DNA of 64,000 nucleotides from Candidatus Eiseniibacteriota bacterium (lineage in GTDB: Bacteria > Eisenbacteria > RBG-16-71-46 > JABDJR01). Positions within the stretch are counted from its first letter, which is position 1; every line of letters starts with the position of its first letter. The DNA lies in contig CAVYIE010000007.1 of NCBI GenBank assembly GCA_963768615.1, forward strand, positions 1,356,648 through 1,420,647, given 5' to 3'. Positions 10,461 to 32,612 of the stretch are shown piece by piece. The notes beneath the pieces were generated by a model that worked only from the letters and a program-made list of their open reading frames with translations, did not search any database and had not been told where the DNA came from. Both the position numbers and the translations under genes were made by a program.

Positions 10461-11309
10461 TCAGGACCCGGCCGCCCGCGCCACCGCGGCCTTGAAGTCG
10501 GCGAAGCCCGAATCCTTCTCCTCCAGCCCGGACTTGGGGGGCAGCTTGTCGATGAGACTCTGGGTGTAGCTGATCCGGTCCTCGGTCAGGGGATGGCTGG
10601 CGAAGAACTGCTCGAGGGCCCCCGGCTTCTGCTGGCGCATGTCGAGGAGGACCCGGAAGAACTGCACCATGCCCTCGGGGTCCACCCCGGCGTCGTACAT
10701 GTAGCGCACTCCCAGCTTGTCCGCCTCCTCCTCGGCGTCCCGGCTGAACTTGGACACCGCCCCGTTGGCCAGCACCGAGGCCAGGATCTGCTCGTAGACG
10801 GCGGGGTTCCGGCCCAGGACGAGCGAGGCCACGATGGAGATGCCGTACTGCTTGGTCAGGTTCTCCACCCCGTGGCGGGCGAGGCCGTGGGAGACCTCGT
10901 GGGCCATGACCCCCTCCAGCTCGTCGTAGCGGGCGGCGGCGGCCACCAGTCCCGAGTTCAGGTAGACGTGTCCCCCGGGGATGTTGAAGGCGTTGACCGT
11001 CTCGTCCTGGATGACGTGGAAGTCCCAGGGCTGGTCCGCCACCGGGGTGTCGCCCTTGGCCGCCTGCACGATCCGCTCCCCCATCCGGGTCACGTACTGC
11101 TTGATGGCGGGGTCGTCGAGGAGGCGCTTCTGCTGGGCGACGTCCGCGGCCAGGGAATCGCCCAGCTGCCATTCCTCGCCGATGGAGATGAGGCTCAGGT
11201 CGCCCTTGTTGATCCCGCTGGTGGCGCAGCCGAGGAATCCCCCCAGGGCGGTGAGGGCCAGGGGGAACAGCCAGGCGCGAAGGCGCCGCGGGGACGATGC
11301 GAGGTTCAT
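10461..11309 (-). CDS. M48 family zinc metalloprotease, lipoprotein
   Basis: Lipobox-like FLGC, VNAFNIPGG, HEVSH, SRDAEEEAD, FASHP. Confidence 0.93.
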   Translation of the reverse strand: MNLASSPRRLRAWLFPLALTALGGFLGCATSGINKGDLSLISIGEEWQLGDSLAADVAQQKRLLDDPAIKQYVTRMGERIVQAAKGDTPVADQPWDFHVIQDETVNAFNIPGGHVYLNSGLVAAAARYDELEGVMAHEVSHGLARHGVENLTKQYGISIVASLVLGRNPAVYEQILASVLANGAVSKFSRDAEEEADKLGVRYMYDAGVDPEGMVQFFRVLLDMRQQKPGALEQFFASHPLTEDRISYTQSLIDKLPPKSGLEEKDSGFADFKAAVARAAGS

Positions 11310-11404
11310 GATCGTTTCCTTCCGCTCGGGGCCGGGGCCCCATGATTTCAACCGGCGCTATCCGGGAGCCGCGGAAGCGGAGACCGCAACCCGGGCTCCC
11401 CTCC

Positions 11405-12106
11405 CTATTGAAACACGTTCCGGTAGAGGTTCACCACCAGGTCCACCCCCCGCTCCAGACCGACCCGTTCCAGGTTCAGCATCAGGTCGTAGGCCTCCGG
11501 ATCGGTGATGTCGCGGTGGATGTACCGTTCCACGAAGCCGGCCCGCTCCTTGTCGGTCCGGGCGACCAGTTCCCCGGCCTCCTCCCGGTCCATCCCCTGC
11601 AGGCGGACCACCCGGCGCACCCGGAAGTCGAAACCGGCCACGGTGCGCACGTGGAGTCCGGGCTCCCCGTCGAGGATGAAGTTCGCCCCCCGGCCCACCA
11701 CCACCGCGGAGCCGGTGCGGGAGATGGTGATGAGCGCCTTGCCCAGGGACCGGACGTAGTCCTCCCCGCTCACCAGCCGGTTGTGGAGCACCCCGTCCAC
11801 CCACTGTTCGATGCCGCTCCGGGTGTGCTGATCCAGAGCCTCCAGGACCCCCTTGTCCACCCCGGACTCCTCGGCCACCACGTCGATCATCTCATGGTCC
11901 ATGAGCGGGTAGCCGAGCCGGACCGCCACCATCTCGGCCAGTTCGGTTCCCCCGCTTCCGATCTGGCTGGACACGGTGACGATCGGACGCAGCGGGCCCT
12001 CGGGCGCGGCCGGCCGGGTCCGGCCCTCGGCCTCCTTGGCCGCCTTCTGCTCCAGGATCCACCGGTGGATCTGGTTCTCGATGAGCTTCCGCGATTCTCC
12101 CTTCAT
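11405..12106 (-). CDS. Cytidylate kinase-like family protein
   Basis: VTVSSQIGSGGTELA, VVGRGANFIL, YDLMLN. Confidence 0.88.
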   Translation of the reverse strand: MKGESRKLIENQIHRWILEQKAAKEAEGRTRPAAPEGPLRPIVTVSSQIGSGGTELAEMVAVRLGYPLMDHEMIDVVAEESGVDKGVLEALDQHTRSGIEQWVDGVLHNRLVSGEDYVRSLGKALITISRTGSAVVVGRGANFILDGEPGLHVRTVAGFDFRVRRVVRLQGMDREEAGELVARTDKERAGFVERYIHRDITDPEAYDLMLNLERVGLERGVDLVVNLYRNVFQ

Positions 12107-12229
12107 GGCCTCACCGCCTCCTTTCCCCCGATCATTCTAACCTGAAAAGTCCTTGTCAGGAGCCCGTGGAGTGGCTAATGTGCGCGACACACTTCACCTC
12201 CGGCCTGCGGACAATCCCCGGGAGAGCGA

Positions 12230-13339
12230 ATGGTACAAGGCAAGCGCTCGACGTTTCGGCGCCTCTTCGAGCCCCGCGGGCTTCTCCCCGCTCTCTGCGT
12301 GCTCTCCCTGCTCCTCCTTCCCCTCCTCCCGTCCCGGCCGGCCGCCGCCCAGACCCCTCCCGCCGACAGCGCCGGAGCCGACACCGGCGGCATCGTCTCG
12401 CCCGCCCGTCCTCCCCTGGAGGCCACCCAGTCCGCCCTGGACACCCTGGCCGGCGAGACCCCGGTGGGCGTCCCGGACCAGGCGTCTCCTCCCCTGACCG
12501 TGGCCGAGGCCCGGGAGCGGGGGCCGAAGTACTTCTTCACCAACCGGTTGAACCTCCTGGTCATCCTCCTGATCGTGGGCGGCGCCATCTTCACCTACAC
12601 CCTCCGGGCTACCCGCGGGGTGTCCTACAAGATCCGGCGCATCGCCGGCATCGACGCCATCGAGGAAGCGGTGGGCCGGGCCACCGAGATGGGCAAGCCG
12701 GTGCTGTTCATCCCCGGCATCCAGGACCTGGACAACGTGCAGACCGTGGCCGGCGTCACCATCCTGTCCTCGGTGGCCGGCCGCATCGCCGAGTACGACG
12801 CCCGGCTGGCCGTGCCCACCTCCCGCTCGCTGGTCATGACCACCGCCCGGGAGACGGTGAAGGAGGCCTACTCCGCCGCCGGACGGCCCGACGCCTACAA
12901 CGACGACATGATCTACTACGTGACCGACGAGCAGTTCGGTTACGTAGCCTACCTGGACGGCTACATGGTCCGGGAGAAGCCCGCCACCTGCATCTACATG
13001 GGCGCCTTCTTCGCCGAGTCCCTGATCCTGGCCGAGACCGGCTACTCGGTGGGGGCGATCCAGATCGCGGGTACGGCCATGCCCACCCAGCTTCCCTTCT
13101 TCGTGGCCGCCTGCGACTACACCCTGATCGGCGAGGAGCTCTTCGCCGCCAGCGCCTACCTCAGCCAGGACCCGCGACTCCTGGGCAGCCTCCGGGGGCA
13201 GGACTTCGGGAAGCTGTTCGCCATGGTCTTCATCGCCCTCGGCAGCCTGGTAGTCACCGTGGACGTGGTCTCGGGCGGGGTCTTCCACGGGCTGGCCGAC
13301 TGGCTCGTCAACGTCGTCTTCACCGTCGTGCAGCACTAG
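12230..13339 (+). CDS. DUF6754 domain membrane protein (gene 1 of uncharacterised 4-gene operon)
   Basis: Signal peptide, low-complexity linker, TM, then IRRIAGIDAIEEAVGRATEMGKPV...ESLILAETG...QLPFF...DYTLIGEELFAASAYLS; family name from recall. Confidence 0.8.
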   Translation: MVQGKRSTFRRLFEPRGLLPALCVLSLLLLPLLPSRPAAAQTPPADSAGADTGGIVSPARPPLEATQSALDTLAGETPVGVPDQASPPLTVAEARERGPKYFFTNRLNLLVILLIVGGAIFTYTLRATRGVSYKIRRIAGIDAIEEAVGRATEMGKPVLFIPGIQDLDNVQTVAGVTILSSVAGRIAEYDARLAVPTSRSLVMTTARETVKEAYSAAGRPDAYNDDMIYYVTDEQFGYVAYLDGYMVREKPATCIYMGAFFAESLILAETGYSVGAIQIAGTAMPTQLPFFVAACDYTLIGEELFAASAYLSQDPRLLGSLRGQDFGKLFAMVFIALGSLVVTVDVVSGGVFHGLADWLVNVVFTVVQH

Positions 13340-13348
13340 GAGGACCTC

Positions 13349-14029
13349 TTGCTCCGCGTCACCATCCCAGTCTTCATCGCCTCGGTGGTGGGGGTTCTCC
13401 TGGTCCTGGCCATGTTCTTCCCTCCCCTCCACGGGGCGGACAACTATTTCTCCCAGTGGTTCGACATCATCGCCGCGGTGGCCTTCGCCCTCGGCGGCGG
13501 GAACCTGCTCCGCATCCACCTGGAGAAGCTCTACCGCCGGAAGCCGGGCTGGTGGTACAGCCTGGTCACCCTGGGCGGGTTCTTCTTCACCCTTCTCGCC
13601 GGCCTGTTCAAGATCGGGAATCCCCAGGGCTGGCAGGGGAACGTGAACGCCCAGGGCTCGCTGTTCAACTTCGCCTACGACGGGATGTTCACCCCGCTCC
13701 AGGCCACCATGTTCTCCATCCTCGCCTTCTTCGTGGCCTCGGCCTCCTACCGCGCCTTCCGGGCCCGGAACGTGGAGGCCTCCCTGCTCCTGGGGGCGGC
13801 GTTGATCATCCTCCTCGGCCGGACCTTCGTGGGGGCGTGGATGACCGCCTGGCTTCCTCCTTCCCTCGACTTCCTCACCGTTCCCAACCTGTCCAACTGG
13901 ATCATGTCCACGATCAACCTGGCCGGCCAGCGGGCCATCCTCATCGGCATCAGCCTGGGGGTGATCTCGACCTCGCTCAAGATCATCCTCGGCATCGAAC
14001 GGTCCTACCTGGGCGGGAGGGAGTCCTGA
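13349..14029 (+). CDS. Hypothetical integral membrane protein (~6 TM), gene 2 of DUF6754 operon
   Basis: TTG start after AGGAGG; ATMFSILAFFVASASYRAFRARN. Confidence 0.85.
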   Translation: MLRVTIPVFIASVVGVLLVLAMFFPPLHGADNYFSQWFDIIAAVAFALGGGNLLRIHLEKLYRRKPGWWYSLVTLGGFFFTLLAGLFKIGNPQGWQGNVNAQGSLFNFAYDGMFTPLQATMFSILAFFVASASYRAFRARNVEASLLLGAALIILLGRTFVGAWMTAWLPPSLDFLTVPNLSNWIMSTINLAGQRAILIGISLGVISTSLKIILGIERSYLGGRES

Positions 14030-14030
14030 G

Positions 14031-14906
14031 ATGAGGTCCTTCCTGCAGAGCATGGGCCGGCTGGACCGGCGCTGGATCTTCCTGACCATCGCCCTGGCCG
14101 TGATCATCCCCCTCGCCCTCCACCTGGTGTTCCCCGTACTCACCAGCCCCATCGTTCAGAACATCTTCGACAAGGTGGACAGCCTGCCCCCCGGGTCCAA
14201 GGTGCTGATCTCCGCCGACTACGGCCCGAGCACGGTGCCGGAGAACCAGCCCATGCTGGATGCGGTGGCCCGGCACGCGCTGCACAAGGGTCTAAAGGTC
14301 TACTTCATGAGCCTGTGGGCCACCGGCCCGCCCATGCTGGTGCAGATGAAGCACGACGTCATCGACAAGGACTTCCCCGGCCTGGACCAGGGGACGGACT
14401 GGATGAACCTGGGCTATCAGGCCGGCAACCAGGGCGTGATCAACTCCGCCTACGCCGACTTCAAGGTCGCCTTCCCGGTGGACTCCCGGGGCGAGAACAT
14501 CCACACCGTGCCCATGATGAAGGGCATCCACCGGCTGGCCGATTTCGACCTGATCGTCGGCATCGGCTCCGGGTTCCCCGGGGTCAAGGAGTGGATCCAG
14601 TTCGGGGGCGACCCGGCCGGGGTGCCGGTGGCGGGCGGGGTGACCGCGGTGGAGGCGCCGCTCCTCTATCCGTACTACCCGAAGCAGCTCCTGGGGCTGA
14701 TGGGCGGCCTGCAGGGGGCGGCGGAGTACGAGGCGGCCCTGGTGGCCAGGTACCCGCAGTACCAGGCCACCTCCACCCAGGCCATCCAGCGCATGGGACC
14801 GCAGACCGTGGCCCACCTCGTCATCATCGGATTCATCATCATCGGCAACATCGCCTACCTGGCCGGCGGGCGTGAGAAGCCGCGACTGGGGGTGGGACAG
14901 CGATGA
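14031..14906 (+). CDS. Hypothetical protein with N- and C-terminal TM helices and a soluble domain, gene 3 of DUF6754 operon
   Basis: Starts 1 nt after the previous stop; DRRWIFL TM, GGLQGAAEYE, AHLVIIGFIIIGNI. Confidence 0.85.
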   Translation: MRSFLQSMGRLDRRWIFLTIALAVIIPLALHLVFPVLTSPIVQNIFDKVDSLPPGSKVLISADYGPSTVPENQPMLDAVARHALHKGLKVYFMSLWATGPPMLVQMKHDVIDKDFPGLDQGTDWMNLGYQAGNQGVINSAYADFKVAFPVDSRGENIHTVPMMKGIHRLADFDLIVGIGSGFPGVKEWIQFGGDPAGVPVAGGVTAVEAPLLYPYYPKQLLGLMGGLQGAAEYEAALVARYPQYQATSTQAIQRMGPQTVAHLVIIGFIIIGNIAYLAGGREKPRLGVGQR

Positions 14907-17489: not shown

Positions 17490-18587
17490 CTACTGGGAGC
17501 TGGACTCCGATGGAACCTCCTGGGCCACTTCCGCGCGGGCGCCGGCCCCGGGGAGTCCCGCCCGGGCCTGGGCCATGTCCTGCTCGAAGCGGCCGGCCAG
17601 CGCGGCCAGGTCCACGGGTTCGGTCCCTGGAAGGTCGTCCAGGAGCCTCACCCGGGCCAGGTTCGCCGCCGCCCGGTTATGCCCGGGATCGGCGTCGAGA
17701 GCGGCAGCGTAGGTCCCGGCGGCGGCGCGGAAGTGGCCGGTCCGCTCCAGGGCCAGCCCGAGGTTGTTCCGGAACACCGCCACCGTGCCGTCCACCTGTA
17801 CCGCCCGGGCCAGCGGGGGGAGCGCCTGCTCAGCCTGGCCGCCCTGCAGGTAGAGCAGTCCCAGGTTGTTCATGGACCACGCGTCGCCGGGGTCCAGGCG
17901 CACCGCCCTCCGGTAGGCCGCCTTGGCCTCCTCGTTGCGGTTCAGGTTCTGATACGCGCGGCCGAGCACCCGCTGGGCGTCGGCGGAACGGGGATCCAAG
18001 GCGGCAGCCTGCTCGGCGACGACTCGGGCGTCCCGGAAGCGACCCTCGTCGATCAGCACACGGGCCAGGTTGGTGCGGCCCTCCAGGTGCATCGGATCCC
18101 GTTCCACGGCGGCGTGGAACGCCGCCTCTGCGTCCTCCCAACGCCCCGCCTTCCACAAGGAGAGCCCCAGCATGGTGTGGCCCCAGGCGCTTTCGGGGTG
18201 CTCCTTGGTCCAGACGGCGAAGTGCTCGGCCGCGTCGTCGTAACGGCCCTCCTCGAGGAGGGCCTTGGCCTCGGCGAAGCTCCCCGGATCCTCGGATCCG
18301 GCCTGCTCCCGGGCCTCGTTCTCCATCGGGGACGTCCCGGCGCCGGCGGGGTCGTCCACCCCCGCCACGGCGGCGCCGGTCGTCGGCTCCTCGCCCGGAG
18401 CGGTCCCGGTATGGGCCGGGACGGCCTCGGGCGCCGGCGCCTGGTTGCGGGCGACCGGAGAGGCGGTGCCCTCCTCCCGTCCCCCACACCCGACGGCGCT
18501 CAGGGCAACCCCCAGCGCCACGGTCAGAGTCAGTGCCCCCAGAAAGACTCCCACCGGTTTCCACGAAGTTTTGATGATCGCGAGCAT
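17490..18587 (-). CDS. Tetratricopeptide-repeat lipoprotein
   Basis: Signal peptide ending AVGC, Pro/Ala linker, several TPRs (e.g. SMNNLGLLYL, FRNNLGLALE). Confidence 0.88.
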   Translation of the reverse strand: MLAIIKTSWKPVGVFLGALTLTVALGVALSAVGCGGREEGTASPVARNQAPAPEAVPAHTGTAPGEEPTTGAAVAGVDDPAGAGTSPMENEAREQAGSEDPGSFAEAKALLEEGRYDDAAEHFAVWTKEHPESAWGHTMLGLSLWKAGRWEDAEAAFHAAVERDPMHLEGRTNLARVLIDEGRFRDARVVAEQAAALDPRSADAQRVLGRAYQNLNRNEEAKAAYRRAVRLDPGDAWSMNNLGLLYLQGGQAEQALPPLARAVQVDGTVAVFRNNLGLALERTGHFRAAAGTYAAALDADPGHNRAAANLARVRLLDDLPGTEPVDLAALAGRFEQDMAQARAGLPGAGARAEVAQEVPSESSSQ

Positions 18588-18821: not shown

Positions 18822-20178
<1,357 letters not shown>

Positions 20179-20182
<4 letters not shown>

Positions 20183-21939
20183 GCTCGCCCTCCCTTGGCG
20201 GGCAACCGGACGGTGAACCGGGCGCCCCCGGCGGGCCCGTTCCCGGCCCGGACCGTCCCGTCCAGGTCGGAGACCAGGCGGCGCACGATGGAGAGGCCCA
20301 GCCCGGCTCCGGACTTCTTGGTGGTATAGAAGTCGTTGAAGATATCATCCAGGTGTTCGGCGGGGATACCGGGCCCGGTGTCGCTCACCGAGAGCTGGAC
20401 CTGGCTCCCGCCGTCGTCCCCGGCGGCGCGTCCCGTGGCCACGGTCACCGTGCCGCCCGCCTCGCCGAGGCTCTCCACCGCGTTGCGGATCAGGTTCTCC
20501 AGGATCCTGCGGATGGCCACCGGGTCCGCCTGCACCGGCGGCAGTTCCGGATCCGGTTTCATCTCCAGGGTCACCCGTTCCGGTCCCGAGAAGGCGGCCC
20601 GGACCTGGTCCAGGGTGTCGTTCACGTTCCAGGTCACCGGAGCCCCGGTGACCGAGAGCCGGGCGTAGTGATGGGCGAGAAGCTCCAGGTACTCCAGGCT
20701 CTGCTCCACGCTCTCCTGGCGCTCGGCGAACACCCGCGCCAGCCCCTCCGGCTTCTCCCGGGCCACCTGGCGCAGGTGCCGGAAGGTGTTGCGGAGCGGG
20801 GTGAGCCCGTTCCAGATGTCGTGATTGACCTGCCGGGCCATGTCCCCCTGGGTGGCGCGGCGTTCGGCGTCCCGAAGCCGCTCCGCGCTCGCCCGCAACC
20901 GCCGCATCATGTCGGCCAGGAAGCGGCTCAGGGTTCCCACCTCGTCCCGGCGCCGGCTCTCGAACCGGCCGTCGAGGTGGTCCAGGTCCAGGGTCTCGGT
21001 CCGCCGGGAGAGATCGACGATGGGCCGGCTGATGGCGGCCGAGAACCACACGGCCAGGATCAGGGTGCCCAGGGCGGTGGCGGCCAGGGCCCCGGCCAGC
21101 CAGGCGTCCAGGCTCCGGAGCAGGCGGTGGAGCGGCCCCAGGGGATAGCTGATCAGCACCTGGGCCTCGGCCAGGCGGGCCGGCTCGCTGCCCGTGACCA
21201 CGAAGGGGATGGACAGGCTGCGCACCAGGTACCGGTCGCGGGGCAGGACCGTCCGCCAGGAGGCCCCCTTCCCGCTGTCGGGCAGGGCGGCCAGGCGGAC
21301 GGCGAGGGAGTCGTCCGAGGACAGGGCGTCTCCCGGTACCAGGAGCGACACCGCCAGCTCCCGGTCCCGGGCCAGGCCGGAGAGGAAGCTCCGGTCCACC
21401 TGCATTCCGCCCACCACGGAGAAGGTCTCTCCGGCCATGGAGAAGCGCTCCAGGCGGGCCAGGGCGAGGAAGCTGCCCGTGGCCAGCCGGGCCCGGGTGA
21501 GGGCGGTGGAATCGGGCGCCTCGGCCAACCGGCGGGGCAGCCCCGGCTCCCGCCGGTCGTACTCGTTCCGGAAGTGCCCGGAGCTCAGGATCCGCCCCGA
21601 GGAGTCCTGGATCTGGAGCATGGAGAGGCCCATCAGCCCCATGGCGCGTCCGGCGTAGTCGAGCAGGTAGGTCCGCTCGCTGGCAATGCCCGCCACCGCG
21701 GCCAGCCGGAACTGGTTGTCGTCGACGATCCGGGGGACCAGGATGGCCAGCCGGGTGTCCACCGACCGCCCCCGCTCGCCCAGGTTCTCCTGGATCACCT
21801 CGGCCAGGGTTTCCACCCGGCGGTCGTACTGCTCGGACAGGCGGCGGGACATCTCCTGCCGGATACCGAGGGCGAGCAGGGCCAGGGGCACCAGGACCAG
21901 GATGGTGGACGCGGCCAGGATGCGCAGCCGGAGGCTCAA
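20179..21939 (-). CDS. Membrane sensor histidine kinase (2 TM, periplasmic domain, HAMP, HisKA, HATPase)
   Basis: TTG start overlaps the SBP stop; QVNHDIWNGL H-box, NLIRNA, DTGPGI, FYTTK, GLGL. Confidence 0.92.
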
Positions 21940-23492
21940 GGCACCACCTCCTCCGCGTCCGCGGACCACCCCAGCCGGTCCAGGAGGAGGGTGCCGTCCC
22001 CGTCCACCCGCAGCCCGGCCAGGGTCCGGCGCACGGCCGCCTGGGGCCGGGTCCGCACCAGGGGCAGCGCGGCCAGGCCCAGCCGGTACGGGCTCCCGGA
22101 GGTGCATCCTCCGGCCAGGCACCGGAGCCAGGGCGCGTCGGCCACCAGGGCCCGGGCCTCGCGGCAGGGAGGGGCGAAGGCGCGCACCAGGGGCACCACG
22201 TAGGCGATGTCGCTGCCCGAGGCCAGCTGCTCGCGGAACTGCACCCCGGTCAGCGCCTCGGCCCGCGGTCCCCCGCCCTCCCGGCCCAGGGCCTCCAGCG
22301 CGGCGGCGGCGCCGGCACCCCCGCCGGTCTCCTTGGACGCCGAACCCAGGGCCACCACCCGCTCGGCCAGCCGCTCGGCGTCGGTATCCCCCGACGGGTA
22401 GACGACCCGGTTGCTGAGCGGAGCGCTCGGCCACACCGTGCGCGGTGCCGGAGCGGGAGGCGTGGCCGGGCAGGGCGCCCCCCCGGAACCGGCGAAGGAG
22501 AACCCGGCCGCCCCCTGGGCGGCGGAGACGGCCACGTCCCGGGCCAGTTCCTCCCCCAGTTTGCCCGAGGCGGGCGGGGAGCCGGAGCCCGAGGGATCGA
22601 AGGCGGTCCCCCCTTCCCCCGTCCGCACCGGCGAAACCAGCACGTAGAGCCGGTCGAAGGGGAGCTCCCGCATGACGTAGCCGGGAAGGCTGGACGCGTA
22701 GTCCACCGCGCCCCGGTCCCGGAGCAGCATGAGATCCACCTTGGGGGTGAAGACGTCGCGGGGATCGGCCCCGGGGTGGATGCCGACGCGGATGACCGAG
22801 AGCGCCGGCTCCGAGCGTCCGGTGGTCACCGGGAGCAGGGCCAGGTCGTAGCCGGACGCGTCGCCGGGACGGTAGGGCCCGGTGCCCATGGGCCAGGCGG
22901 AATCCTCGCTCGGCTTGGCCACGGCCAGGGCGGGATGGGCGAAGAGGGCGGGACTCTCCCCCAGGGGGGCGGTCAGGGCGACCCGGACCTCACGGTCCCC
23001 GGAAACCGACACCGACTCGGGACGGATCCAGATCCAGGGCAGCGACGCCGATCCGGACGCGTGCATCCCCCGCGTTCGCCGCCAGGCCGCGCTCACCGCC
23101 TGGGGCCAGATGGGGACTCCGTCCCAGAATCGCGCCCCGGCCCGGAGGGTGAAGGTCCAGATCCGCCCGTCCTCCGTGGACCGCCAGCCTTCGGCCAGTC
23201 CGGGAACGACCTCCCCCTCGCAGTCGATGCGGACCAGGGTCTCGTACAGCTGGCGGAAGATCAGCCGTTCGGCGTCGTTGTCGGGAAGGGGGGCATGGCG
23301 GGGGTTCACCGAGGCGTCCAGGGCCAGGGCCACCGGAGCCCCGTGATCGGCGGGACCGGGACCCACGTAACAGGGCGCCGCGGCCGGACCGGGCACCTCC
23401 GGCCGCCCGGCGGGGGGAGCGCATCCCGCGGCCACGGCCATCAGCGCCGCCCAAAGCACGAGTCGTAGCGAGCATCTACCGGCCGGTTTCAT
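21936..23492 (-). CDS. Family 5 (peptide/nickel-type) substrate-binding lipoprotein
   Basis: Lipobox AAGC; LYETLVRID..GEVVPGLAEGW..DGRIWTFTLR..ARFWDG; GTGPY. Confidence 0.82.
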   Translation of the reverse strand: MKPAGRCSLRLVLWAALMAVAAGCAPPAGRPEVPGPAAAPCYVGPGPADHGAPVALALDASVNPRHAPLPDNDAERLIFRQLYETLVRIDCEGEVVPGLAEGWRSTEDGRIWTFTLRAGARFWDGVPIWPQAVSAAWRRTRGMHASGSASLPWIWIRPESVSVSGDREVRVALTAPLGESPALFAHPALAVAKPSEDSAWPMGTGPYRPGDASGYDLALLPVTTGRSEPALSVIRVGIHPGADPRDVFTPKVDLMLLRDRGAVDYASSLPGYVMRELPFDRLYVLVSPVRTGEGGTAFDPSGSGSPPASGKLGEELARDVAVSAAQGAAGFSFAGSGGAPCPATPPAPAPRTVWPSAPLSNRVVYPSGDTDAERLAERVVALGSASKETGGGAGAAAALEALGREGGGPRAEALTGVQFREQLASGSDIAYVVPLVRAFAPPCREARALVADAPWLRCLAGGCTSGSPYRLGLAALPLVRTRPQAAVRRTLAGLRVDGDGTLLLDRLGWSADAEEVVP

Positions 23493-23704
23493 TCCAGGGC
23501 TCCAGGGATGGACCGCGCGGGGTTGCGCGGCCGGGGGAAGAATCCCGATCAGGAACCGAAGTCTAGCAGGACCCGCCGGCACCGGTCTTCACGGCGAAGG
23601 CCGCCGCCTTTCCCCGCCCGCCCGCGCGGGTTAGAGTCGGAAGCGGGCCGGGACGCGTGCGCCCGCCGTCTCCGGCCGCGCACCCGCGGGCGAGGCGAGG
23701 CTCC

Positions 23705-24193
23705 ATGAAGACCCACACCGGGGCCGCCCGGGCCTGGTTGATCTGGGACGGCGGCTGAGGATTCTGCTGCCGGGCGGTGACCTGGGCCCGGCGGCGCGGC
23801 GCGGAGCGCCGCTTCCGCATCGTCTCCTACCAGGACGCGCCCTCCCCCCCCATGACCCCCGCCCTGAGGGAACGGGCCCGGCGCGCGGTGCAGGTGCTGA
23901 CCCCCGAGGGACGCCGGCTGGAGGCCGGGCGCGCCTCGCTCTACGTGCTGGCCCGGGTGGGCTACCCGGGCGCGGCCCGGGTGCTCTCCCTGCCCCCGTT
24001 CTCATGGGCGGTGGAGCTGGGCTACCGCGGCGTGGCCGCCAACCGCCGGTTCCTGGAGCGCTGGCTCTCCCGCGATCCACGGCGCTGCCGGGCCGAGGAC
24101 CGGAACCGGGTCGGCGTCCCGGACGCCGACCCACCCTCCCCTGCATCCGGCGGAGGAGGCGGTCACTCCTCCAGCATTCGCAGCCAGCGGTAG
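23705..24193 (+). CDS. DCC/DUF393-family thiol-disulfide oxidoreductase, predicted selenoprotein (UGA=Sec at 23756-23758)
   Basis: ATG 23705: MKTHTGAARAWLIWDGG-TGA-GFCCRAV in frame with ORF 23777..24193 (GYRGVAANR); UGA occupies the first Cys of DGxCxxC. Confidence 0.85.
23766..23795 (+). promoter_or_regulatory. Putative bacterial SECIS hairpin of the DCC gene
   Basis: 10-bp stem GCUGCCGGGC/GCCCGGCGGC, loop GGUGACCUGG starting 17 nt after the UGA. Confidence 0.65.
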
Positions 24194-25476
24194 ATCGACG
24201 CCCGGGCGTAGCCGGTGTGACGGACCCAGGCCTCGATGTCCCGTCCCAGGAGCGCGTGCACCTCGCGCAGGTAGGCGTCCTCGACCCGGGACAGGACCGC
24301 GCGCCACGGCAGGCGGGCCAGCTCGGCGATGGCGGGAAGCTCCGGCCGCTCACCGGATCCGGACGTGAGGGCGCCGGCGCCGTGGATCACCGCCCGCCTC
24401 AGGTCGTGGAAGTTCTCCGGCCAACCGCACGCGGCCAGCTCCGGCAGGTCGGCGGGGCGGAGCGCCCCCAGGCCGTGCTCCCCGGGACGGCCTTCCAGCC
24501 GGGCCAGGCGGGCGGCGTGGAACTCCAGGTCCTCCGCCTGCTCGCGGAGCGGGGGAACCTCCACCGTCCACGGTTTCCAGAAGGCGGCCAGCGGGGGCGA
24601 CCAGTCCCGGTCCCCGCCGCCGCCGGTGCGGCGCGAGCAGATGACCCGGGCGCTCAACCGGCGCGTCCGGGCGCTGCCCACCCGCCGGTAGCCACCCGAG
24701 GCCAGGGCCAGGCGCAGTCGCTCCAGCCGGTCCTCGGGAAGATCCTCGAGCCCCTGCACGAACACCGTGCCCCGGGCCGCCGCGCCCAGGGCGCCGGGAA
24801 GGCCGTTCCCCCGCCCCTCCACGCCGTAGAACTCCCGCTCGAACTCGTCGGCGTCCCGCGAGCGTGCGCTCACGGGAATGAACGGCCCCGAGGCGACCCG
24901 GGACCGGGCATGGATCCAGCGGGCGGCGGTGAGCTTCCCGCAGCCCAACTCCCCGGTCAGGAGGAGGGGCTGGAGCCCCTCCTCGTAGGGGCGGAGAAGC
25001 TCACGCAGGGCTCGCGCCGCCTCGCACCCGTTCCAGGGAAAGTCCTCCGCCTCGGGAACCGCGTCCAGCAGGTTCCGGTAGTGGCCCAGCTCGTCGGTGA
25101 GCAGGCTGTGCTCGATGGCCTGGCCCACCTCGCGCCGGAAGGTGCCCGGATCCAGACGCTCGTCCTTGTTGATATAGGGAATCCCCTCCACCAGGGCCCG
25201 GCTGGTGGTATTGGTTCCGGCATAGATGGTGAGGAGGATCACCGGAAAGCGGTGCCCCTCCTTCCGGAGCCTCTGGTGCACGGTGAACCCGTCCTCGTCC
25301 AGGCCGAGGGCCAGGTCCAGGAGGAGGAGGTCCGGGGTTCGCGCTTCCAGGGCCACGAACAGCGCTTCCGGTGCGGCGAAGGTCTGGATCTCGAAATCCT
25401 TGCCCAGGAGGTGGACCGCCTCCCGGCGGAACCCCTCCTCGTCGTCCAGCAGCATGACCAACGGCCTCGGAATCAT
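24163..25476 (-). CDS. Atypical NtrC-like response regulator (intact REC, degenerate AAA+, HTH)
   Basis: LLDDE, LLLDL, T and K of REC present; Walker A GELGCGK; no GAFTGA; Walker B reads VFVQG; C-terminal ARASIYRW HTH. Confidence 0.82.
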   Translation of the reverse strand: MIPRPLVMLLDDEEGFRREAVHLLGKDFEIQTFAAPEALFVALEARTPDLLLLDLALGLDEDGFTVHQRLRKEGHRFPVILLTIYAGTNTTSRALVEGIPYINKDERLDPGTFRREVGQAIEHSLLTDELGHYRNLLDAVPEAEDFPWNGCEAARALRELLRPYEEGLQPLLLTGELGCGKLTAARWIHARSRVASGPFIPVSARSRDADEFEREFYGVEGRGNGLPGALGAAARGTVFVQGLEDLPEDRLERLRLALASGGYRRVGSARTRRLSARVICSRRTGGGGDRDWSPPLAAFWKPWTVEVPPLREQAEDLEFHAARLARLEGRPGEHGLGALRPADLPELAACGWPENFHDLRRAVIHGAGALTSGSGERPELPAIAELARLPWRAVLSRVEDAYLREVHALLGRDIEAWVRHTGYARASIYRWLRMLEE

Positions 25477-25509
25477 GTTGATCCATCCTCCCCGGGACCG
25501 GAGTCCCGT

Positions 25510-28500
25510 TCAGACGTTGTCGAACCGGGGCACCCGCACCTCGGCCCGGACCCCCCCGCCGGGGGCGTCCGTGATCCGTGCCTTCCCGCCGTAGGCGGCC
25601 AGGATCTGGTTCAGGCGCGTGAGCCCGGAGCGGGAGCCCGGGCGCCCGTCGCGGGCCCACTCCGCCTCCACCGAGGCCCCGTCGTCCCACACCCCCAGCA
25701 CCGCGACCTTCGGCCCCTGGGCGGCCACCGTCACCCGGATGGTCCCCGGAACCGGGACCTTCTTCCCGGCGTTGGCCAGGAACTCGTCCAGGCAGGCGAA
25801 GGCGTCGGCCGCGCTCAGGGGAAACCGCCGGCCCAGGTCGGAGTCCTCGATCTCGCAGACCGGTACCGGGCCGGTCCCGCCGTGGTGGGTACGGAAGCGC
25901 ACCACCCGCTCCAGCACCTCCGCCGGGGCGCAGCTGAACCGCTCGACCAGCGGCCCCTGGATGAGGGTCAGCGAGGTCCGGAGCGCGCTCCCCGCTTCCA
26001 GGAGGCGCTCCGGGTCCGCGATCTCCTCCCCGCAGACGCGCTCCAGCTCCCGGATAGCCCGGTCGGCCGTCCGGGCCCCCTCCAGGCCCAGTTCCCAGGC
26101 CACCTCGACCGCGCGCCGGAGGCGGGCCAGCACCTCGGGGGGCAGGTACTCCCGGAAGGGAGGATCGGCGGGAACCGCCGCCTCTCCGCCTCCGTTCCGG
26201 GCCCCGGCCCGGACCGCCCGGGCCGCCCGGGAGACCCCGGCCAGGGCCAGCCGCCAGTGGGCATGGGACGAGAAGCCCACCACCGAGAGGAGCTCCCTCC
26301 ACATGCGCTCCTCGTCCCGGACCCGCCGCCGCCTCCGGATCCCCGCCCCCAGGAGGATCAACCCGGCCGCCGCGGCCAGCCCGGCCGCGGCCCGGGCCCC
26401 CGGCTCGCGGGCCGCCGCCCGCGGGATCTCGCTCCAGGTGGGAAGCCGCCAGCGCGCCCAGGACCCGATCGCCGCCGCTTTACCCCGCCAGCCCGGGGGG
26501 CGGCCCGGCGTCACCGTGACCCTGTCGCCGGGCAGGCCCGGCGGGGCCTCGGCGGGCGGACCGAAGCCCTGGACCGAGAGCCGCTCGCCCGCGGCGACCA
26601 GGAAGGGGGCCGTCCCGCCCCGATGGGTGGAGGTGCGGAGTACGCTCCAGGGCCGGGGACCGGCGCCGGTGAGCCGCGCCCCGATCCCGCCCGAGTTGGG
26701 TCCGGGGCGGCGGAGCTGGACCCGGCGCACCGGCCCGGTGCCGGGCAGGGGAACCACCTGGGGGCCATCCTCCCGGGACAGCACCGCCTCCACCGTCCCG
26801 TCGCCGTCCAGGTCGGCGAGGAAGACCATCTCCGCGCCGGCCAGGGAATCCGGACGATCGGTGAGGGTCAGCCGGCCCGGCCGCACGCCCGGCTCCTCCG
26901 GCGCCCTCCGCACGGGATCGAAGTCGTAGGCGACCAGGCCGTCCATCTCCTCCAGGGTCACCAGCTCGGGGCCCCCGGCGCCGTTCACGTCGGCCATGAC
27001 CGCGTCCCCGGTGACCTGGCCCCCCTCCATCCCCCAGGCCGTGGTCACGTCCTCGAAGCGGAAGCCGCCCCGGTTCAGGAGCATGAAGTTGTTGCCGCTC
27101 ACTTCGGGCCGGGCCGAGATGTTCACCACCGGCGCGTAGAGATCCAGACGGCCGTCGCCGTCCAGGTCGGCCACCACCAGCGTGCGCTGGAATCCCTCGT
27201 CCATGACCGCGACCTGGACGCGCCTGCCGAACCGGCCCGGCCCCAGACCGGGGAACGCCGCCAGCCCGTACACCCCGGTCAGGCAGGCCAGATCCAGGAC
27301 CCCGTCCCCATCCAGGTCGGCGAGGCGGATGTGGTAGATCCCGTGCAGGTTCGGATAGCCCGAGCCCTCCACCGGCCGGGCGGCGGCGAACCCCGCCTTC
27401 CCCCGCCCCTCCAACCGCTGAAGCCGCGGGTGCGCGTTGTCCCCCATGAGGTGATAGCCCAGGTAGAGGTCCAGATCCCCGTCCCCGTCGTCGTCGGCGA
27501 GCTCCAGGGCGGTGAGGATCGCCCCCAGCTCCGGCACGGGAACGCGGAGGGTGTCGCCCCGGAACCCGCCCCGGCGGTTCCAGAGCAGATGCAGCGTCTC
27601 CCCGTCCGATTCCGCGGCCACCAGGTCCAGGTCGCCGTCCCCGTCCAGGTCCCCGGCGACCATGATATCCAGGGCCTCCGGCCGGGCCAGGGCGTCCTTC
27701 CGCGGGGAACGGCGGTACCCTCCGGTCGCGGGATCGAAGACCCAGAGTTTCTCTCCGTGCTTCCAGGGGGTGACCACTTCGGGCACCCCGTCCCCGTCCA
27801 GGTCCGCGGGAAGGAAGCGGCCCTCGGTCACCTTGGGGCGGCGGCCGCGGGGGGGAGGAACGTGCCGGTCGCGGGCCCGTCCGTAGCTGAGGCGCCCGAG
27901 CCAGACCTCCTGCTGGTGGGGCAGGTCCATGCTGATCTCCACGCCGACGAAACGGCCCGGCTCCTCGGCGGCATCGTAGCCCTTGAGGCGGCCGAACTCC
28001 TGCACGTCGGCGATGGAGGTCCAGGCCTGCTGGTAGCGCCCCGGCGGACGGAAGAAGTCGTCCCCGTAGTCGTAGATGGAGTGGGAGGCGGCCAGCTGGA
28101 ACACGCGGCTCCGGTCGTCGATGAGGCTGAGAACGACCCGGTCCGCGGTCTTCATGTTGGCCACGTACCAGTCCCATCGCCAGAACTCCGCCTCCTCCCG
28201 GGAGAGGGGGGGGATTCCCAGGTCCGAGAACCTCAGGATGAAGGCTGGCGTTCGAGCCGGTGCGGCCGGAGGGGGCGTCGGCCCGGAAAACCCACATGGG
28301 ACGAAGTCCGGCATGACCCAGGCCGACCGACCCGTGCGCCCCCCCCGCCGGCGGCAGCGCCGTCCATTCGGCGCCGGAACGGGGGATGATCTGGTGGATC
28401 GGCTGCGCCGCGGCCGTTCCCACGGACAGCGCCAGCGCCGCCGCCGCGGCCAGGAGCCGGGCGGGTAACGCGATGGGGCGGCGGTGATTCCGGAGCGGCT

Positions 28501-28519
28501 TGGAGGAAACAGTCGGCAC
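25510..28519 (-). CDS. Sensor kinase-like protein with extracellular FG-GAP propeller and ASPIC/UnbV-like segment, TM and C-terminal HATPase-like domain; apparent frameshift at 28339-28346
   Basis: Signal peptide (LLAAAAALALSVGTAAA) in another frame; seven (A/G)DxDGDG-type repeats; NSGGIGARL; TM followed by RRRRR; EFLANAGK, VWDDGAS, SGL, GGGVRAEV. Confidence 0.75.
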
Positions 28520-28705
28520 GTGAAACCCGATGGAAGGCCGGAGCCAGGCGCTCCGGCATGGAAACGACTTTTCCGGTCATCGAGCTTCGCGGGGGAAGGC
28601 GAAGGGATTGGGATTATAGCGGAGCGGGGACGGGGAGAAAAGCCGGGTCGGGGCCGGCCACCGACGGGGGCCGCCCGTCCGCGCGCGGGGCGGTGAGCAA
28701 TGCGG

Positions 28706-28840
28706 CCTCAAGAGTTCTGGCGCCTCGGAGTGGATCAACGGCATTTGCACCGGGCCGGGTTTCCCCCAGGTCCCGCCGTGGCGGGACCACGTCCAGCCCG
28801 ATCCGTGCCGCGATTCATCCTCGGCGCCAGAACATCCAGG
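28706..28840. other. Long nested inverted repeat, candidate structured RNA or palindromic element
   Basis: GTTCTGGCGCC(28714-24)/GGCGCCAGAAC(28823-33), CGGCA/TGCCG, CGGGC/GCCCG, inner GGTCCCGCC/GGCGGGACC. Confidence 0.5.
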
Positions 28841-29058
28841 AAGATGCGTCAACTCGCAGGAGGCGTCTCCTCGCCCCCGATTGCAGTTTCCACATCCTGG
28901 GCAGCAATGACCACCCCATCCGCGCGGATTCGCGTCTCATTATTGAGACGAGGGTCCACATCGTTGAAAGATTTCTTCGATACGGCGCCGGCTTTGGTTC
29001 GATCGTGACGCGAAAACTCGATCCGTATCGCAGAACCCTCCGCCGCAGCCGGGCCGGA

Positions 29059-29526
29059 TCAGGCCGGTTTCACCGCCGCGCCCAGCTCGCCGGGCTTCCG
29101 GAGCATCTTGTCCACCTCGCCCAGGTGGCGGACTTCCTGCTCGATCATTCGCCGGGCGTACTCCTCGAGGGCGGTGGAGCGGTCCTCCACCGCGGCCAGG
29201 AGGTCCCGGTAGTGCTGAAGGCCCTCGCGCTCGTGTTCCACCGACTCCCGCAGGATGTCGCCGATGTCGTGCTTCTCGGTCTCCAGGAGCTTCCCGATGC
29301 CCAGGGAGGGATGCCCGCCGAGCTGGGTGATGAGCTCCCCGGCCTCGTGGGCGTGAGCCAGGCTCTCGGCGGCCTGCTCCCGGAGCCAGGAGGAGATGGG
29401 AATCCGGCTGTAACCGAAGACCATGAACGAATAGTGGGTGTAGCGGACGACCCCGGCCAGCTCCAGTTCCAGGATGTGGTTCAGCGCGGCAAGGACCCGG
29501 TCCCTGTCGGCGTCCTTCTCGAACAT
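29059..29526 (-). CDS. Bacterioferritin/ferritin-like protein
   Basis: LNHILELELAGVVRY, ESLAHA, ITQLGGHP, EQEVRH di-iron pattern. Confidence 0.88.
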   Translation of the reverse strand: MFEKDADRDRVLAALNHILELELAGVVRYTHYSFMVFGYSRIPISSWLREQAAESLAHAHEAGELITQLGGHPSLGIGKLLETEKHDIGDILRESVEHEREGLQHYRDLLAAVEDRSTALEEYARRMIEQEVRHLGEVDKMLRKPGELGAAVKPA

Positions 29527-29560
29527 GGTTCCTCCTCTCGGAATGGGATGCGGTACACGT

Positions 29561-32465
29561 TCACCTTAGCGGCAACCGCACCGGGAGCGCGAGCCGGACC
29601 CGGCTCTCGGTCTCGTCCACCAGCCGGATCTCGCCGTAGTCGACCATCCCGTCGGGGGCGACCCGGGGAGGGGAATCGCACTCCAGGGTCAGCTCCACCG
29701 GCACGTCGGGCCACAGGTCGAAGCGCGCGTCCTTGCCGTGGCGGACGCGAACCGGCACCGATTCGACCCGCCGGTAGGCCTCGCGCAGGGTGAAGCTCCA
29801 GCTCGTCTCCGCCTCGGCGGCGGTGAACCCGGCCCAGACCCGCAGGGTGTAGGTTCCGGAGTCCGGGGATTCCGGATGCGGGTTCCGGAGGACGATGTCC
29901 AGGTAGCGATCGCCGAAGCCCGAGTTGACCACGGCCTTTCCGGTCCCGTCCAGGACCTGCACCGCGCAGTCGGTGAGGGTGTCGTAGACCGGGGCCGGCA
30001 TCTCGAAGTGGAAGTCCACCCGGTCCAGGTCGGGGCCCATCTTGAAGTCCCGGGTCCACACGTCCGTCCCCGACACGCGGATCGTCCCCTCCCGGAGGTA
30101 GCCGGCGATCTCCCCCTCGCCCCGTCCGTGGAAGGCGCGGTCCAGCACCGCGGTGGCGGTGACCTCGGCGGCCGGACTCCCCCCCTGGGGATAGCGGAAG
30201 GCGCGCAGGGTGTCCGGATCGGCCCGGATCCCGTCCACCCGGGCCCGCAGCCGCCAGGCGCTGGCCCCGGTGTTCCGGTAGTCCGCCACCACCACCGCCT
30301 CCCAGGTCCCGGGGACCAGGTCCGCGCCGGCCAGGGTCACCGAGGCCGCGCTCCGTTCCTCGGAGTCGGCCCACCCCGCCCCGCCGCCCGACCGGCGTCC
30401 GGCGGGATCGTAGAGGGCCAGCCGCACCCGGCCGTGCTTGCCCTCCGGCACCTCCAGGTCCAGCACCATGGCGCTCGCTCCCGCCGGAGGACGGAGATAG
30501 AAGCGCCGGATCTCCCCCGCCTCCAGTCCCTCCCCGCTCCAGGCCCGGTCGTAGCCGGTGTCGCGGTCGAAGGCGTGGGGCACGATCACCGTGTGCCAGG
30601 ACTCCCACTCCGGCGCCTTGGATCCGCCCAGCCCCTTGGCGTAGGCCAGCACCCGCCCCACGTGGAGCCCGGGTTCGCGGAGCCGGTCCGGGTCGTAGCG
30701 CACGGTGAAGGTCCGGCTCTCGCCCCCCTTCAGGTAGGTCTGGTCGCGATCGAGGGTGAGCCAGGGCGCGTCGCTGCGCAGGGTGAAGGCCCGGTAGAAG
30801 GCGTCCTCGGCGTCGGGGCCGGCGGCGGCGGCGAAGGCGGGCGTGACCGTCACCGCCACCCCCCGGGGCGGTTCGGGATAGACCCCGCCGGTGCGCCAGA
30901 AGGCGGCCTGGGGAGAGGCGCCGGTGGGGATGGGGCCGTCGGCGGTCACGGTGTAGGCCAGGAGCGGGGACCCGGCGCGGTCGGAGAGCCCGGTCAGGGC
31001 CCGGAAGGCCTCGGGGATCGCGATCACTCCCGCCCCCTGGTCGAGCACGGTATACCCGGGCAGCGGCCGGGCCGTCCCCCGCACCGCCTGCTTCAGGAGC
31101 GCCCAGGTATAGGGCACGTCCTCGGCCACCGCCGCCCCCACCAGGGCGGCCATCGCTCCCGCGGCCTGGGGCGAGGCCATGCTCGTCCCCCACATGGCGT
31201 CGCCGCGCGCATAGGGAGGGACGCTGGAGGAGGCGGCGCCGGGGGCGAGAGCGGTGGGCTTCATGAGCTCGCCCCCCCGGGAGGAGAAGTGGAAGGGCTC
31301 GTTCCGGGCCAGGTCCCCGCCGTAGAGGCGGCGGGACAGCTCGGCGGGAAAGAGCGCGCCGGTGGTGAAGGCGAAGTACCCCGCCCCCGGCGTGCCCACG
31401 GTGGAGAGCCCGGGGCCGTCGTTCCCGGCCGAGGTCACGAAGACCAGGTCCGGGTGCTGGAGGAGGAAGTCGTCCACGAAGACGTCGATGGCGCTGTGCC
31501 CCTCGGTCTCCGAGCCGATCCCGTAGGACATGTTGAAGACCACCGGCCGGCCGTGGTCCCGGGACCACCGGGCCCCGAACTCCAGCGCCTTCTTCACGCT
31601 CCCGGTGGTGGTGGCCCCGCCGCTCAGGCTGTTGTGACCGATCTTGAGGCTCAGGATCTGGGCCCCCGGGGCCACGCCGTCGAACCCGTCCTGGCCGTTC
31701 AGCCGCCAGCCGGCGGCGATCCCGGCCACGTGCGTCCCGTGGGCGCCTCCGGCGATGTGGAACTCCACCGTGTTCCGGGCGGGAAGGATGGTCAGGCCGC
31801 CGGTGACCCGGTGGAGCTTGGCGGTATCGGTGTCGGAGCGGAAGCGCAGGGTCTGGTGGTCCACCCCGTAGCTCCGCACCGGGGTCTCGTCGTCCAGGTT
31901 CCCGTCCCCGTCCAGATCGACCAGGGCCACCCAGTCGCTGTCGGCGGGATCGGCCACGGTGGGGAAGGCCAGGACCGCGAAGCGCTCGTCGGTGCGCCCG
32001 TCGTTGTTGAGGTCGGCGATGGGGGTGTTGGCGTACTGCGCTCTCCTCCAGGAACCCCAGCCGGTACACGCCGTCGGCGGGGGTGGCGGCCAGGCGATCC
32101 ACCCCGAACACCCGCCTCCCGTCCCCGTCGAGCAGGGAGACCCGCCCGTCCACGGTGTCGAAGCTGGCCTCGGTCAGGGCCACGTCGCCGGCCCCGGTGA
32201 AGTCCCGGGCGTCGAGGATCTTCACCCTGCCGTCGGGGGTCTCCATCAGACCCGGGGTCCCCAGGTCGACACCGGTGTCCATGACCCCGATCACCACCCC
32301 CCGGCCGTCCCCGGCGGGATGATCGGCCCGGAAGGTCCGGGCCCCGATGATGTCGGTGGGGAGGAAGCTCCAGTCCTCGGAGGCGGGAGCGGCGGCGGCG
32401 GCGAGGCTGAACAGGGCGAGCCCGGCGGCGGCCACCGCCGCGGCCGGGATCCGGCGCGTCTTCAT
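29561..32465 (-). CDS. Secreted S8 subtilase resembling tripeptidyl-peptidase II; apparent frameshift near 32040
   Basis: Signal peptide; DGRGVVIGVMDTGVD, HGTHVAGIAAG, SAGNDGP, GTSMASP catalytic motifs split over two frames. Confidence 0.9.
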
Positions 32466-32612
32466 GCGTTCTCCTTGGGGAAGGGACGGGCCCGGGGGGC
32501 CGAGGCCCCCTACCATAGCCTCGCCGGGCCGGGTCCACCAAGCCCCGGCGCGGGGCGGAATCCCCGTGTCCCCCGGCCGCCGCGCCGGACTCCGGCCTCC
32601 GCCGGTTCGGAG

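Follow-up and report, generated by a model that had tools for sequence, protein, structure and literature searches.

A predicted propeller-bearing receptor kinase with a non-canonical histidine module and its partner regulator in a Candidatus Eiseniibacteriota genome

A stretch of 64,000 nucleotides from a Candidatus Eiseniibacteriota genome (contig CAVYIE010000007.1, positions 1,356,648 to 1,420,647) was analysed; it is referred to here as the window and its positions are counted from its first letter. It carries a gene for a predicted receptor histidine kinase, most of which lies in a main open reading frame (ORF) of 934 residues at 25510..28314 on the reverse strand, and directly downstream of it a response regulator gene. 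The architecture of the kinase, established computationally, is a signal peptide, a putative carbohydrate-binding module (CBM)-like domain, an FG-GAP beta-propeller, a post-propeller domain, a single transmembrane (TM) helix, a helical module with a conserved histidine, and an ATP-binding domain of the GHKL type; all of these, and the regulator, are encoded on the reverse strand. A first-pass annotation had described the gene as an integrin-like propeller fused to a histidine kinase-like output.

The predicted phosphoacceptor module (25936..26343) is the unusual part of this protein, and it was overlooked in that annotation. An AlphaFold2 model of residues 658-934, based on a 33-row alignment, has a pLDDT of 92.9 and a pTM of 0.89, with helices at model residues 2-22, 29-50, 63-84, 90-105 and 111-135, after which comes an alpha/beta domain. 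The module is modelled at a pLDDT of 90-93 as a four-helix bundle within a single chain, and when folded alone it has a pLDDT of 90.4. A candidate phosphorylated histidine had been pointed out in the sequence SSHAHW. The first histidine of this motif, His684 (codon 26263..26265), is the predicted phosphoacceptor and the sole invariant column of the helical module, initially in 19 of 19 members and then in 37 of 37, at approximately 20% identity; ten of the 37 rows were recruited by a profile that included the histidine, and some are near-duplicates. The second histidine is not invariant.

The module does not resemble the known phosphoacceptor domains. The HisKA, HisKA_2, HisKA_3, HWE, His_kinase and Hpt models of Pfam matched none of 19 members at E<=5, and no NCBIfam model reached its cut-off for the kinases of the family among the rows listed. 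The HisKA box H-E/D-x-x-T/N is absent from the family, all 37 members lacking an acidic residue after the histidine. The distance from the histidine to the N-box is 156-211 residues in the full cores, whereas 27 canonical cores have a median of 116 (110-124 in 26 of them), so that there are some 50 additional helical residues between the histidine and the ATP domain, another feature previously overlooked. The module aligns over about 120 residues to single-chain four-helix bundles with Z scores up to 10.7, a generic match that reflects arrangement and not kinship, and to the histidine phosphotransfer (HPt) protein 3myf over 100 residues (Z 8.3, root-mean-square deviation (rmsd) 2.9), values usual for helical bundles in general. 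A Foldseek search with the module gave no match at E<=0.001, the HPt comparison having E>0.3, and its profile found only helical-repeat noise among solved structures.

Two derivations of the module from known parts were tried and rejected. A HisKA_3 box with a displaced histidine was dropped because there is no HisKA_3 match. An origin by duplication of the hairpin of the dimerisation and histidine phosphotransfer (DHp) domain was also rejected, as the two hairpins are dissimilar to each other (0.5%) and neither has profile similarity to canonical DHp (hhalign, at most 5.4%). When aligned globally, the canonical hairpin fell on the final two helices of the module, with very low column confidence. 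In three members (L057, L058 and L061) there are long variable insertions between these two helices, of up to about 45 extra residues, which suggests that the loop there faces away from the functional site. Two members have no propeller: L054:563-2104 has three TM helices and a small ectodomain, and P0011 passes almost directly from the start of the CBM-like domain to the TM helix. As these share the same kinase core, the histidine module appears to be modular.

The C-terminal domain (25510..25935) has a GHKL fold in the model, and the divergent HATPase output proposed earlier is therefore confirmed computationally. The Pfam HATPase_c match at residues 841-930 is sub-threshold (E 4.9e-5, 24.2 bits against a cut-off of 26.4), and the modelled alpha/beta domain aligns to the catalytic and ATP-binding (CA) domain of HprS over 133 residues with Z 15.1 and rmsd 2.3 (VIA-align), with concordant results from Foldseek; for the CA domains of HK853, NtrB, VraS and DesK, Z is 12-14. 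No substitution occurs at N848, D877, G879, G897 or G921 in any of the 36 full cores. In a tree of these cores, 15 rows with a shortened ATP lid, among them the window protein, form a clade apart from the 21 full-lid rows (SH-aLRT 98); this is a quick tree, midpoint-rooted and with several long branches. The 21 distant members have a complete DxGxG motif and full lids. In the short-lid clade E844, K851, K852 and R891 are invariant, the last three in 15 of 15 rows.

The response regulator gene (24163..25476) starts 33 nucleotides past the kinase stop and encodes, according to Pfam and alignment, a receiver (REC) domain, a degenerate AAA+ domain and a C-terminal helix-turn-helix (HTH)-like region. 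A REC-AAA+ gene is directly downstream of the kinase in all four orthologous loci (the window, G001, G002 and G003). Likewise, a REC gene is directly downstream in all ten true distant loci, with AAA+ in nine and the tenth cut by the end of its contig. The receiver residues D11, D12, D54, T83 and K104 are the same in all 14 partner genes. The proposal of a receptor kinase paired with the adjacent regulator is thus well supported by the GHKL fold, the invariant histidine, and a downstream partner with intact Asp, Thr and Lys wherever a partner gene is seen.

The degeneration of the regulator AAA+ domain had been overlooked. The regulators of the window, G001 and G003, and the two frames of that of G002, which is split by a frameshift, have neither GAFTGA nor the Walker B acids (DE to QG). 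By contrast, the nine distant partners with AAA+ all have a GAFT-like loop, and the Walker B is DE in eight and NE in one. With both lost, the regulator of the window's clade is not a sigma54 activator. Its best NCBIfam score is to NtrX (E 6.6e-27, 94 bits against a cut-off of 600). There is one copy of the degenerate regulator in this genome (G000) and in each of the three same-genus genomes, compared with two to three copies of the kinase. No sigma70-like promoter was found at 23400-29200.

The extracellular part begins with an N-terminal beta-sandwich of about 170 residues (27865..28405), which was not noted in the first description. It may resemble sandwiches of the CBM30/Lyase_N type: an ESM Atlas search with residues 24-200 of the paralogue P0005 gave CBM30, Lyase_N and SGBP_B_XBD clusters at 0.91-0.92, to be taken as a lead only. 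The domain has no Pfam match in the window protein or the scanned family members, and is common to the distant clade L056/57/58/61 (hhalign 96.9%). The propeller follows at 26725..27822. Seven calcium-binding-type repeats had been noted, and this count is borne out by a Pfam FG-GAP_3 match in the main ORF (E 1.4e-27) and by seven DxDxDG-type motifs at residues 171, 222, 274, 333, 383, 442 and 501, whose number and spacing (50-59 residues) point to a seven-bladed fold.

The post-propeller domain (26485..26736) is 42-44% conserved in the paralogues. It had been likened to ASPIC/UnbV, an assignment that fails: in the window protein there is no match to PF07593 at E<=1, and its profile has an hhalign probability of 0.14% against a shallow three-row profile of the distant members P0037, P0054 and P0159. 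UnbV_ASPIC matches, all weak, were found in three of 32 scanned proteins; the matches are weak in P0037 and P0054, and P0159 has UnbV_ASPIC as a precomputed domain. These three are distant members of about 1170 residues with an extra N-terminal repeat region, FG-GAP, the weak ASPIC/UnbV match and up to three TM helices before the same histidine module. The single TM helix of the window protein, as annotated, is present at 26335..26400, an Ala-rich segment of weak Kyte-Doolittle hydropathy (1.71) followed by a positive-inside run of five Arg; the equivalent segment has values of 1.37-2.85 across 15 close-clade rows.

The beginning of the gene lies outside the main ORF. The signal peptide (28406..28519) is encoded in a different, upstream frame from 28519, and it is real in that its translation aligns to those of the paralogues and the orthologue, over both signal peptide and mature N-terminus, with cleavage of the type between AAA and Q. 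The start codon is probably the GTG at 28519, the exact start being inferred. The change of frame is due to one extra base at 28246 (no strand assigned), where the homology changes frame. The frameshift had been placed in the run of C at 28339-28346, which can be ruled out, since the upstream frame remains homologous to paralogues and orthologues until about 28245, some 100 nucleotides beyond this run, and the base at 28246 is missing from one contig of a close relative (DNA run X2; 151 nucleotides, depth 2.8, 6 other differences). Among sequencing runs, two DNA runs are listed, with small shares, and no RNA run. The orthologues in G002 and G003 are intact. An NtrC-like gene (window ~19480) and an S8 peptidase gene (window ~32170) also appear to be split across frames; the alignment of the NtrC-like query with its orthologues stops at residue 233, and the orthologues of the S8 gene each consist of one ORF. 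These split genes make an assembly indel at 28246 likely, and the extra base is probably a long-read assembly error.

Two further full-length copies of the kinase are in tandem on contig C4 of the same genome, 43% identical over the whole length. They lie at L001:8134-11202 and 11214-14141, with no regulator nearby, flanked by cyclopropane-fatty-acid-synthase-like genes and by a hydroxylase/desaturase-like gene and a Ser/Thr kinase (labels assigned by eye). Their last 100 or so residues are identical, which suggests recent gene conversion or duplication. Among 40 relatives searched, full cytoplasmic matches are present in all three same-genus genomes and in one of four others of the same family, and six further genomes have weak CA-domain matches only. 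The fusion of propeller and kinase is genuine, an assembly chimera being ruled out by the two full-length paralogues and by orthologues and paralogues in four other genomes, orthologues being present in all three of the same genus.

An exhaustive search by profile yielded 205 clusters at E<=0.001, 17 of them at <=1e-10. Domains were scanned in 32 proteins out of the 150 listed; these comprise close members, distant members with FG-GAP and HATPase_c and without HisKA, and ordinary HisKA kinases. Two distant clusters are from KSB1 and Krumholzibacteria, and of 206 genomes of the phylum, 15 had matches to a profile of the histidine module by itself. Eleven distant-family loci were examined, of which ten are true members and one is a chemoreceptor (L063). 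A metagenome scan found one locus, ending at the kinase stop, and an Atlas search with a distant member gave generic HATPase_c clusters only. Rows left out were L063, a repeat artefact (P0019), generic HisKA matches, near-duplicates of included rows, and C-terminal fragments without the histidine region (P0010, P0015-17 and P0021).

Other genes surround the pair. On the reverse strand at 18822-23582 there is an operon of an SBP_bac_5 protein, a HAMP-HATPase (NtrY-like) kinase and the NtrC-like regulator, which has an intact GAFTGA; it is followed by a tetratricopeptide repeat (TPR) lipoprotein gene at 17490-18587, and is syntenic with the propeller kinase in all three same-genus genomes. A gene for a DCC1-like thiol-disulfide oxidoreductase (23777-24193, forward strand) is convergent with the regulator gene, overlaps its 3' end and is kept in the orthologous loci. 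Upstream of the kinase is the secreted S8 peptidase (29481-32516, reverse strand), which has a weak tripeptidyl-peptidase-II Ig-like match and is found in all orthologous loci that reach that far. Between the two is a ferritin-like gene (29059-29526, reverse strand), which was found in neither the G002 nor the G003 locus.

Taken together, this suggests an active two-component kinase, probably glycan-sensing, with a new type of phosphoacceptor, driving a sigma54-independent regulator; we give this a probability of roughly 0.6. The CBM-like domain and the propeller, where calcium is probably structural, would bind a ligand outside the cell, most probably a glycan or a carbohydrate of the cell surface. 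That the signal is a glycan is a best guess, made because of the CBM-like domain and by analogy with the propeller sensors of Bacteroides. The one TM helix would relay the signal to the four-helix module, which is modelled within a single chain; the GHKL domain would bind Mg-ATP and phosphorylate His684, and the phosphate would be passed to Asp54 of the adjacent regulator. The latter is most likely a DNA-binding factor switched by phosphorylation that does not open sigma54 promoters, and this single regulator probably also serves the two orphan paralogues of contig C4. A further, more tentative possibility is that the one-chain bundle replaces the usual two-chain bundle, so that a single-pass receptor could signal as a monomer, with its histidine at a helix break without an acidic neighbour, a short lid remodelled by Arg and Lys, and several propeller receptors converging on one sigma54-independent regulator.

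Several observations weigh against this interpretation. The residue after His684 is never D or E in the 37 members (A in 17, G in 13, T in 4, S in 2 and N in 1), whereas E or D follows the histidine in 32 of the 38 canonical control cores that were scored (those of 49 in which the pattern was found), and an acidic residue there is needed for HisKA kinase activity, according to the available text of Willett and Kirby (PMC3510030). In the model His684 is at the break between helices 2-22 and 29-50 (model residue 27), not mid-helix, and the local pLDDT is 79-83. The ATP lid of the window's clade is 7 residues short, with a G1-to-G2 distance of 18-20 compared with 26-28 in distant members; DxGxG is intact in only three of 15 short-lid rows, against 21 of 21 distant rows, and Arg replaces the first G2 glycine in 13 of the 15. 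The CBM-like Atlas matches share 145-159 features, under the tool's guide of 170, the wiring of the paralogues to the regulator has gene counts as its sole basis, and the flanking genes at the window and C4 loci give no hint of glycan use. The short lid, the DxGxG broken in 12 of 15 rows, the Arg in G2 and the lack of an acidic neighbour would also suit a pseudokinase, which is the main functional rival: the short-lid protein would be a phosphatase, a phosphate sink or relay, or an ATP-gated scaffold for the regulator, and His684 would be loaded by another kinase or used in docking only. The parallel decay of the partner AAA+ domain and the syntenic NtrY-like/NtrC-like pair 2-5 kb away fit this as well. 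It is nonetheless unlikely, given that full-lid members similarly have no acidic residue after the histidine, that all 15 short-lid rows share N848, D877, G879, G897 and G921 along with the new basic residues K851, K852 and R891, a pattern that fits a nucleotide pocket that is remodelled and not dead, and that short-lid kinases such as DesK are active.

An ordinary dimeric kinase derived from HisKA, with a diverged DHp, a two-helix insertion and a standard mechanism, is possible, if doubtful. The CA domain is standard class I, distant members score best over this region to models of the NtrB/ZraS/AtoS/PrsK type, the partners are NtrC-type, and a small residue often precedes the histidine, as in HisKA. 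The dissimilarity of both hairpins to canonical DHp, the absence of HisKA matches, the long interval between histidine and N-box, and the packing of four helices within one chain in the model all argue against it. The integrin-like adhesion, contact or calcium-sensing receptor of the first-pass annotation has gained no direct support and is quite unlikely. The seven calcium-type FG-GAP motifs do recall those of integrin alpha propellers, a link from established knowledge. Yet strict motifs number 2-7 in the propeller-bearing members and only three in each C4 paralogue, the CBM-like domain points to glycans, the full-length profile had no match among solved structures at E<=0.01, and hence none to a solved adhesin, and the members with other ectodomains have the same kinase core. 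Finally, the window copy could be a recent pseudogene, the extra base being genuine, as the assembly itself has it, and only the paralogues being functional. This is very unlikely, since the base is absent from the close relative, the adjacent NtrC-like and S8 peptidase genes and the G002 regulator are likewise split, as indel errors would give, GC content at third codon positions is 0.93-0.97 in frame, and all motifs are intact.

This is a real, conserved and under-annotated two-component system, of which the phosphoacceptor module is more surprising than the propeller. Propeller-sensor kinases and atypical H-boxes are already known. Two rules are near-textbook for membrane histidine kinases: that they dimerise by way of a two-helix DHp, and that the phosphorylated histidine has an acidic neighbour. 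The family seems to follow neither rule, yet retains the ATP domain, the histidine and the operonic regulator. It may therefore be seen as a compact natural experiment on the working of the phosphoacceptor and on the need for a dimer in a membrane kinase, and the four-helix module in place of the usual phosphate-carrying part suggests a new way to build a two-component sensor. It also illustrates the reuse of FG-GAP propellers as bacterial receptor ectodomains. No published description of this propeller-kinase family was found in the literature searched, a coverage outside which most subscription papers and bioRxiv supplements fall.

Comparison with known systems places the pair nearest in layout to the NtrB/ZraS/AtoS-type kinases with NtrC-family regulators. 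Both have a class I layout, an operonic REC-AAA+-HTH partner and a GHKL CA fold (Z 13-15 to HprS, HK853, NtrB and ZraS). The family differs in having no HisKA match, no H-E/D-x-x-T/N and about 50 extra residues in a predicted single-chain four-helix module, and the window's clade differs further in its short lid and degenerate regulator. NtrX is an NtrC-family, sigma54-independent regulator without GAFTGA, and such regulators share REC and an AAA+ lacking this motif with the window regulator. The latter, scoring far under the NtrX cut-off, is not a member, and has lost Walker B as well. The DxDxDG-type FG-GAP blades are shared with secreted FG-GAP/ASPIC-UnbV (CRTAC1-like) proteins and with integrin alpha propellers, from which the window protein differs in its TM helix and kinase output; ASPIC is not detectable in it.

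Propeller-sensor kinases that bind oligosaccharides are known from Bacteroides (PMC3243724, available text). The Bacteroidetes hybrid two-component systems, with a Reg_prop double propeller and Y_Y_Y, likewise join a histidine kinase to a large beta-propeller sensor outside the cell. Here, in contrast, the blades are FG-GAP and not Reg_prop, a CBM-like domain stands in front, the regulator is a separate gene and the histidine module is non-canonical.

The main text of a 2026 preprint (bioRxiv 10.64898/2026.02.27.708494) describes 18 new HisKA-like profiles with two-helix DHp-like folds, sought 30-130 residues upstream of HATPase in RefSeq genomes; in the Lpl0330 family, the true histidine is further upstream than first chosen. 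These are also HATPase proteins without Pfam HisKA but with a conserved histidine. His684 is about 150 residues upstream of HATPase, and the search window of that survey, as given there, would probably miss it; this comparison is with the main text, which does not mention FG-GAP, propeller or four-helix, and the supplementary consensus table may bear on novelty. The family thus defines a phosphoacceptor profile missed by Pfam and, on that text, outside the survey, which suggests that such systems are under-annotated in Eisenbacteria, Krumholzibacteria and KSB1. In the monomeric HWE/HisKA_2 kinase EL346, the dimer face of the DHp is covered within one chain (PMC10359499, available text). EL346 is a soluble protein in which the LOV domain provides this cover, whereas in the modelled structure here the second helical hairpin would do so, within a membrane receptor.

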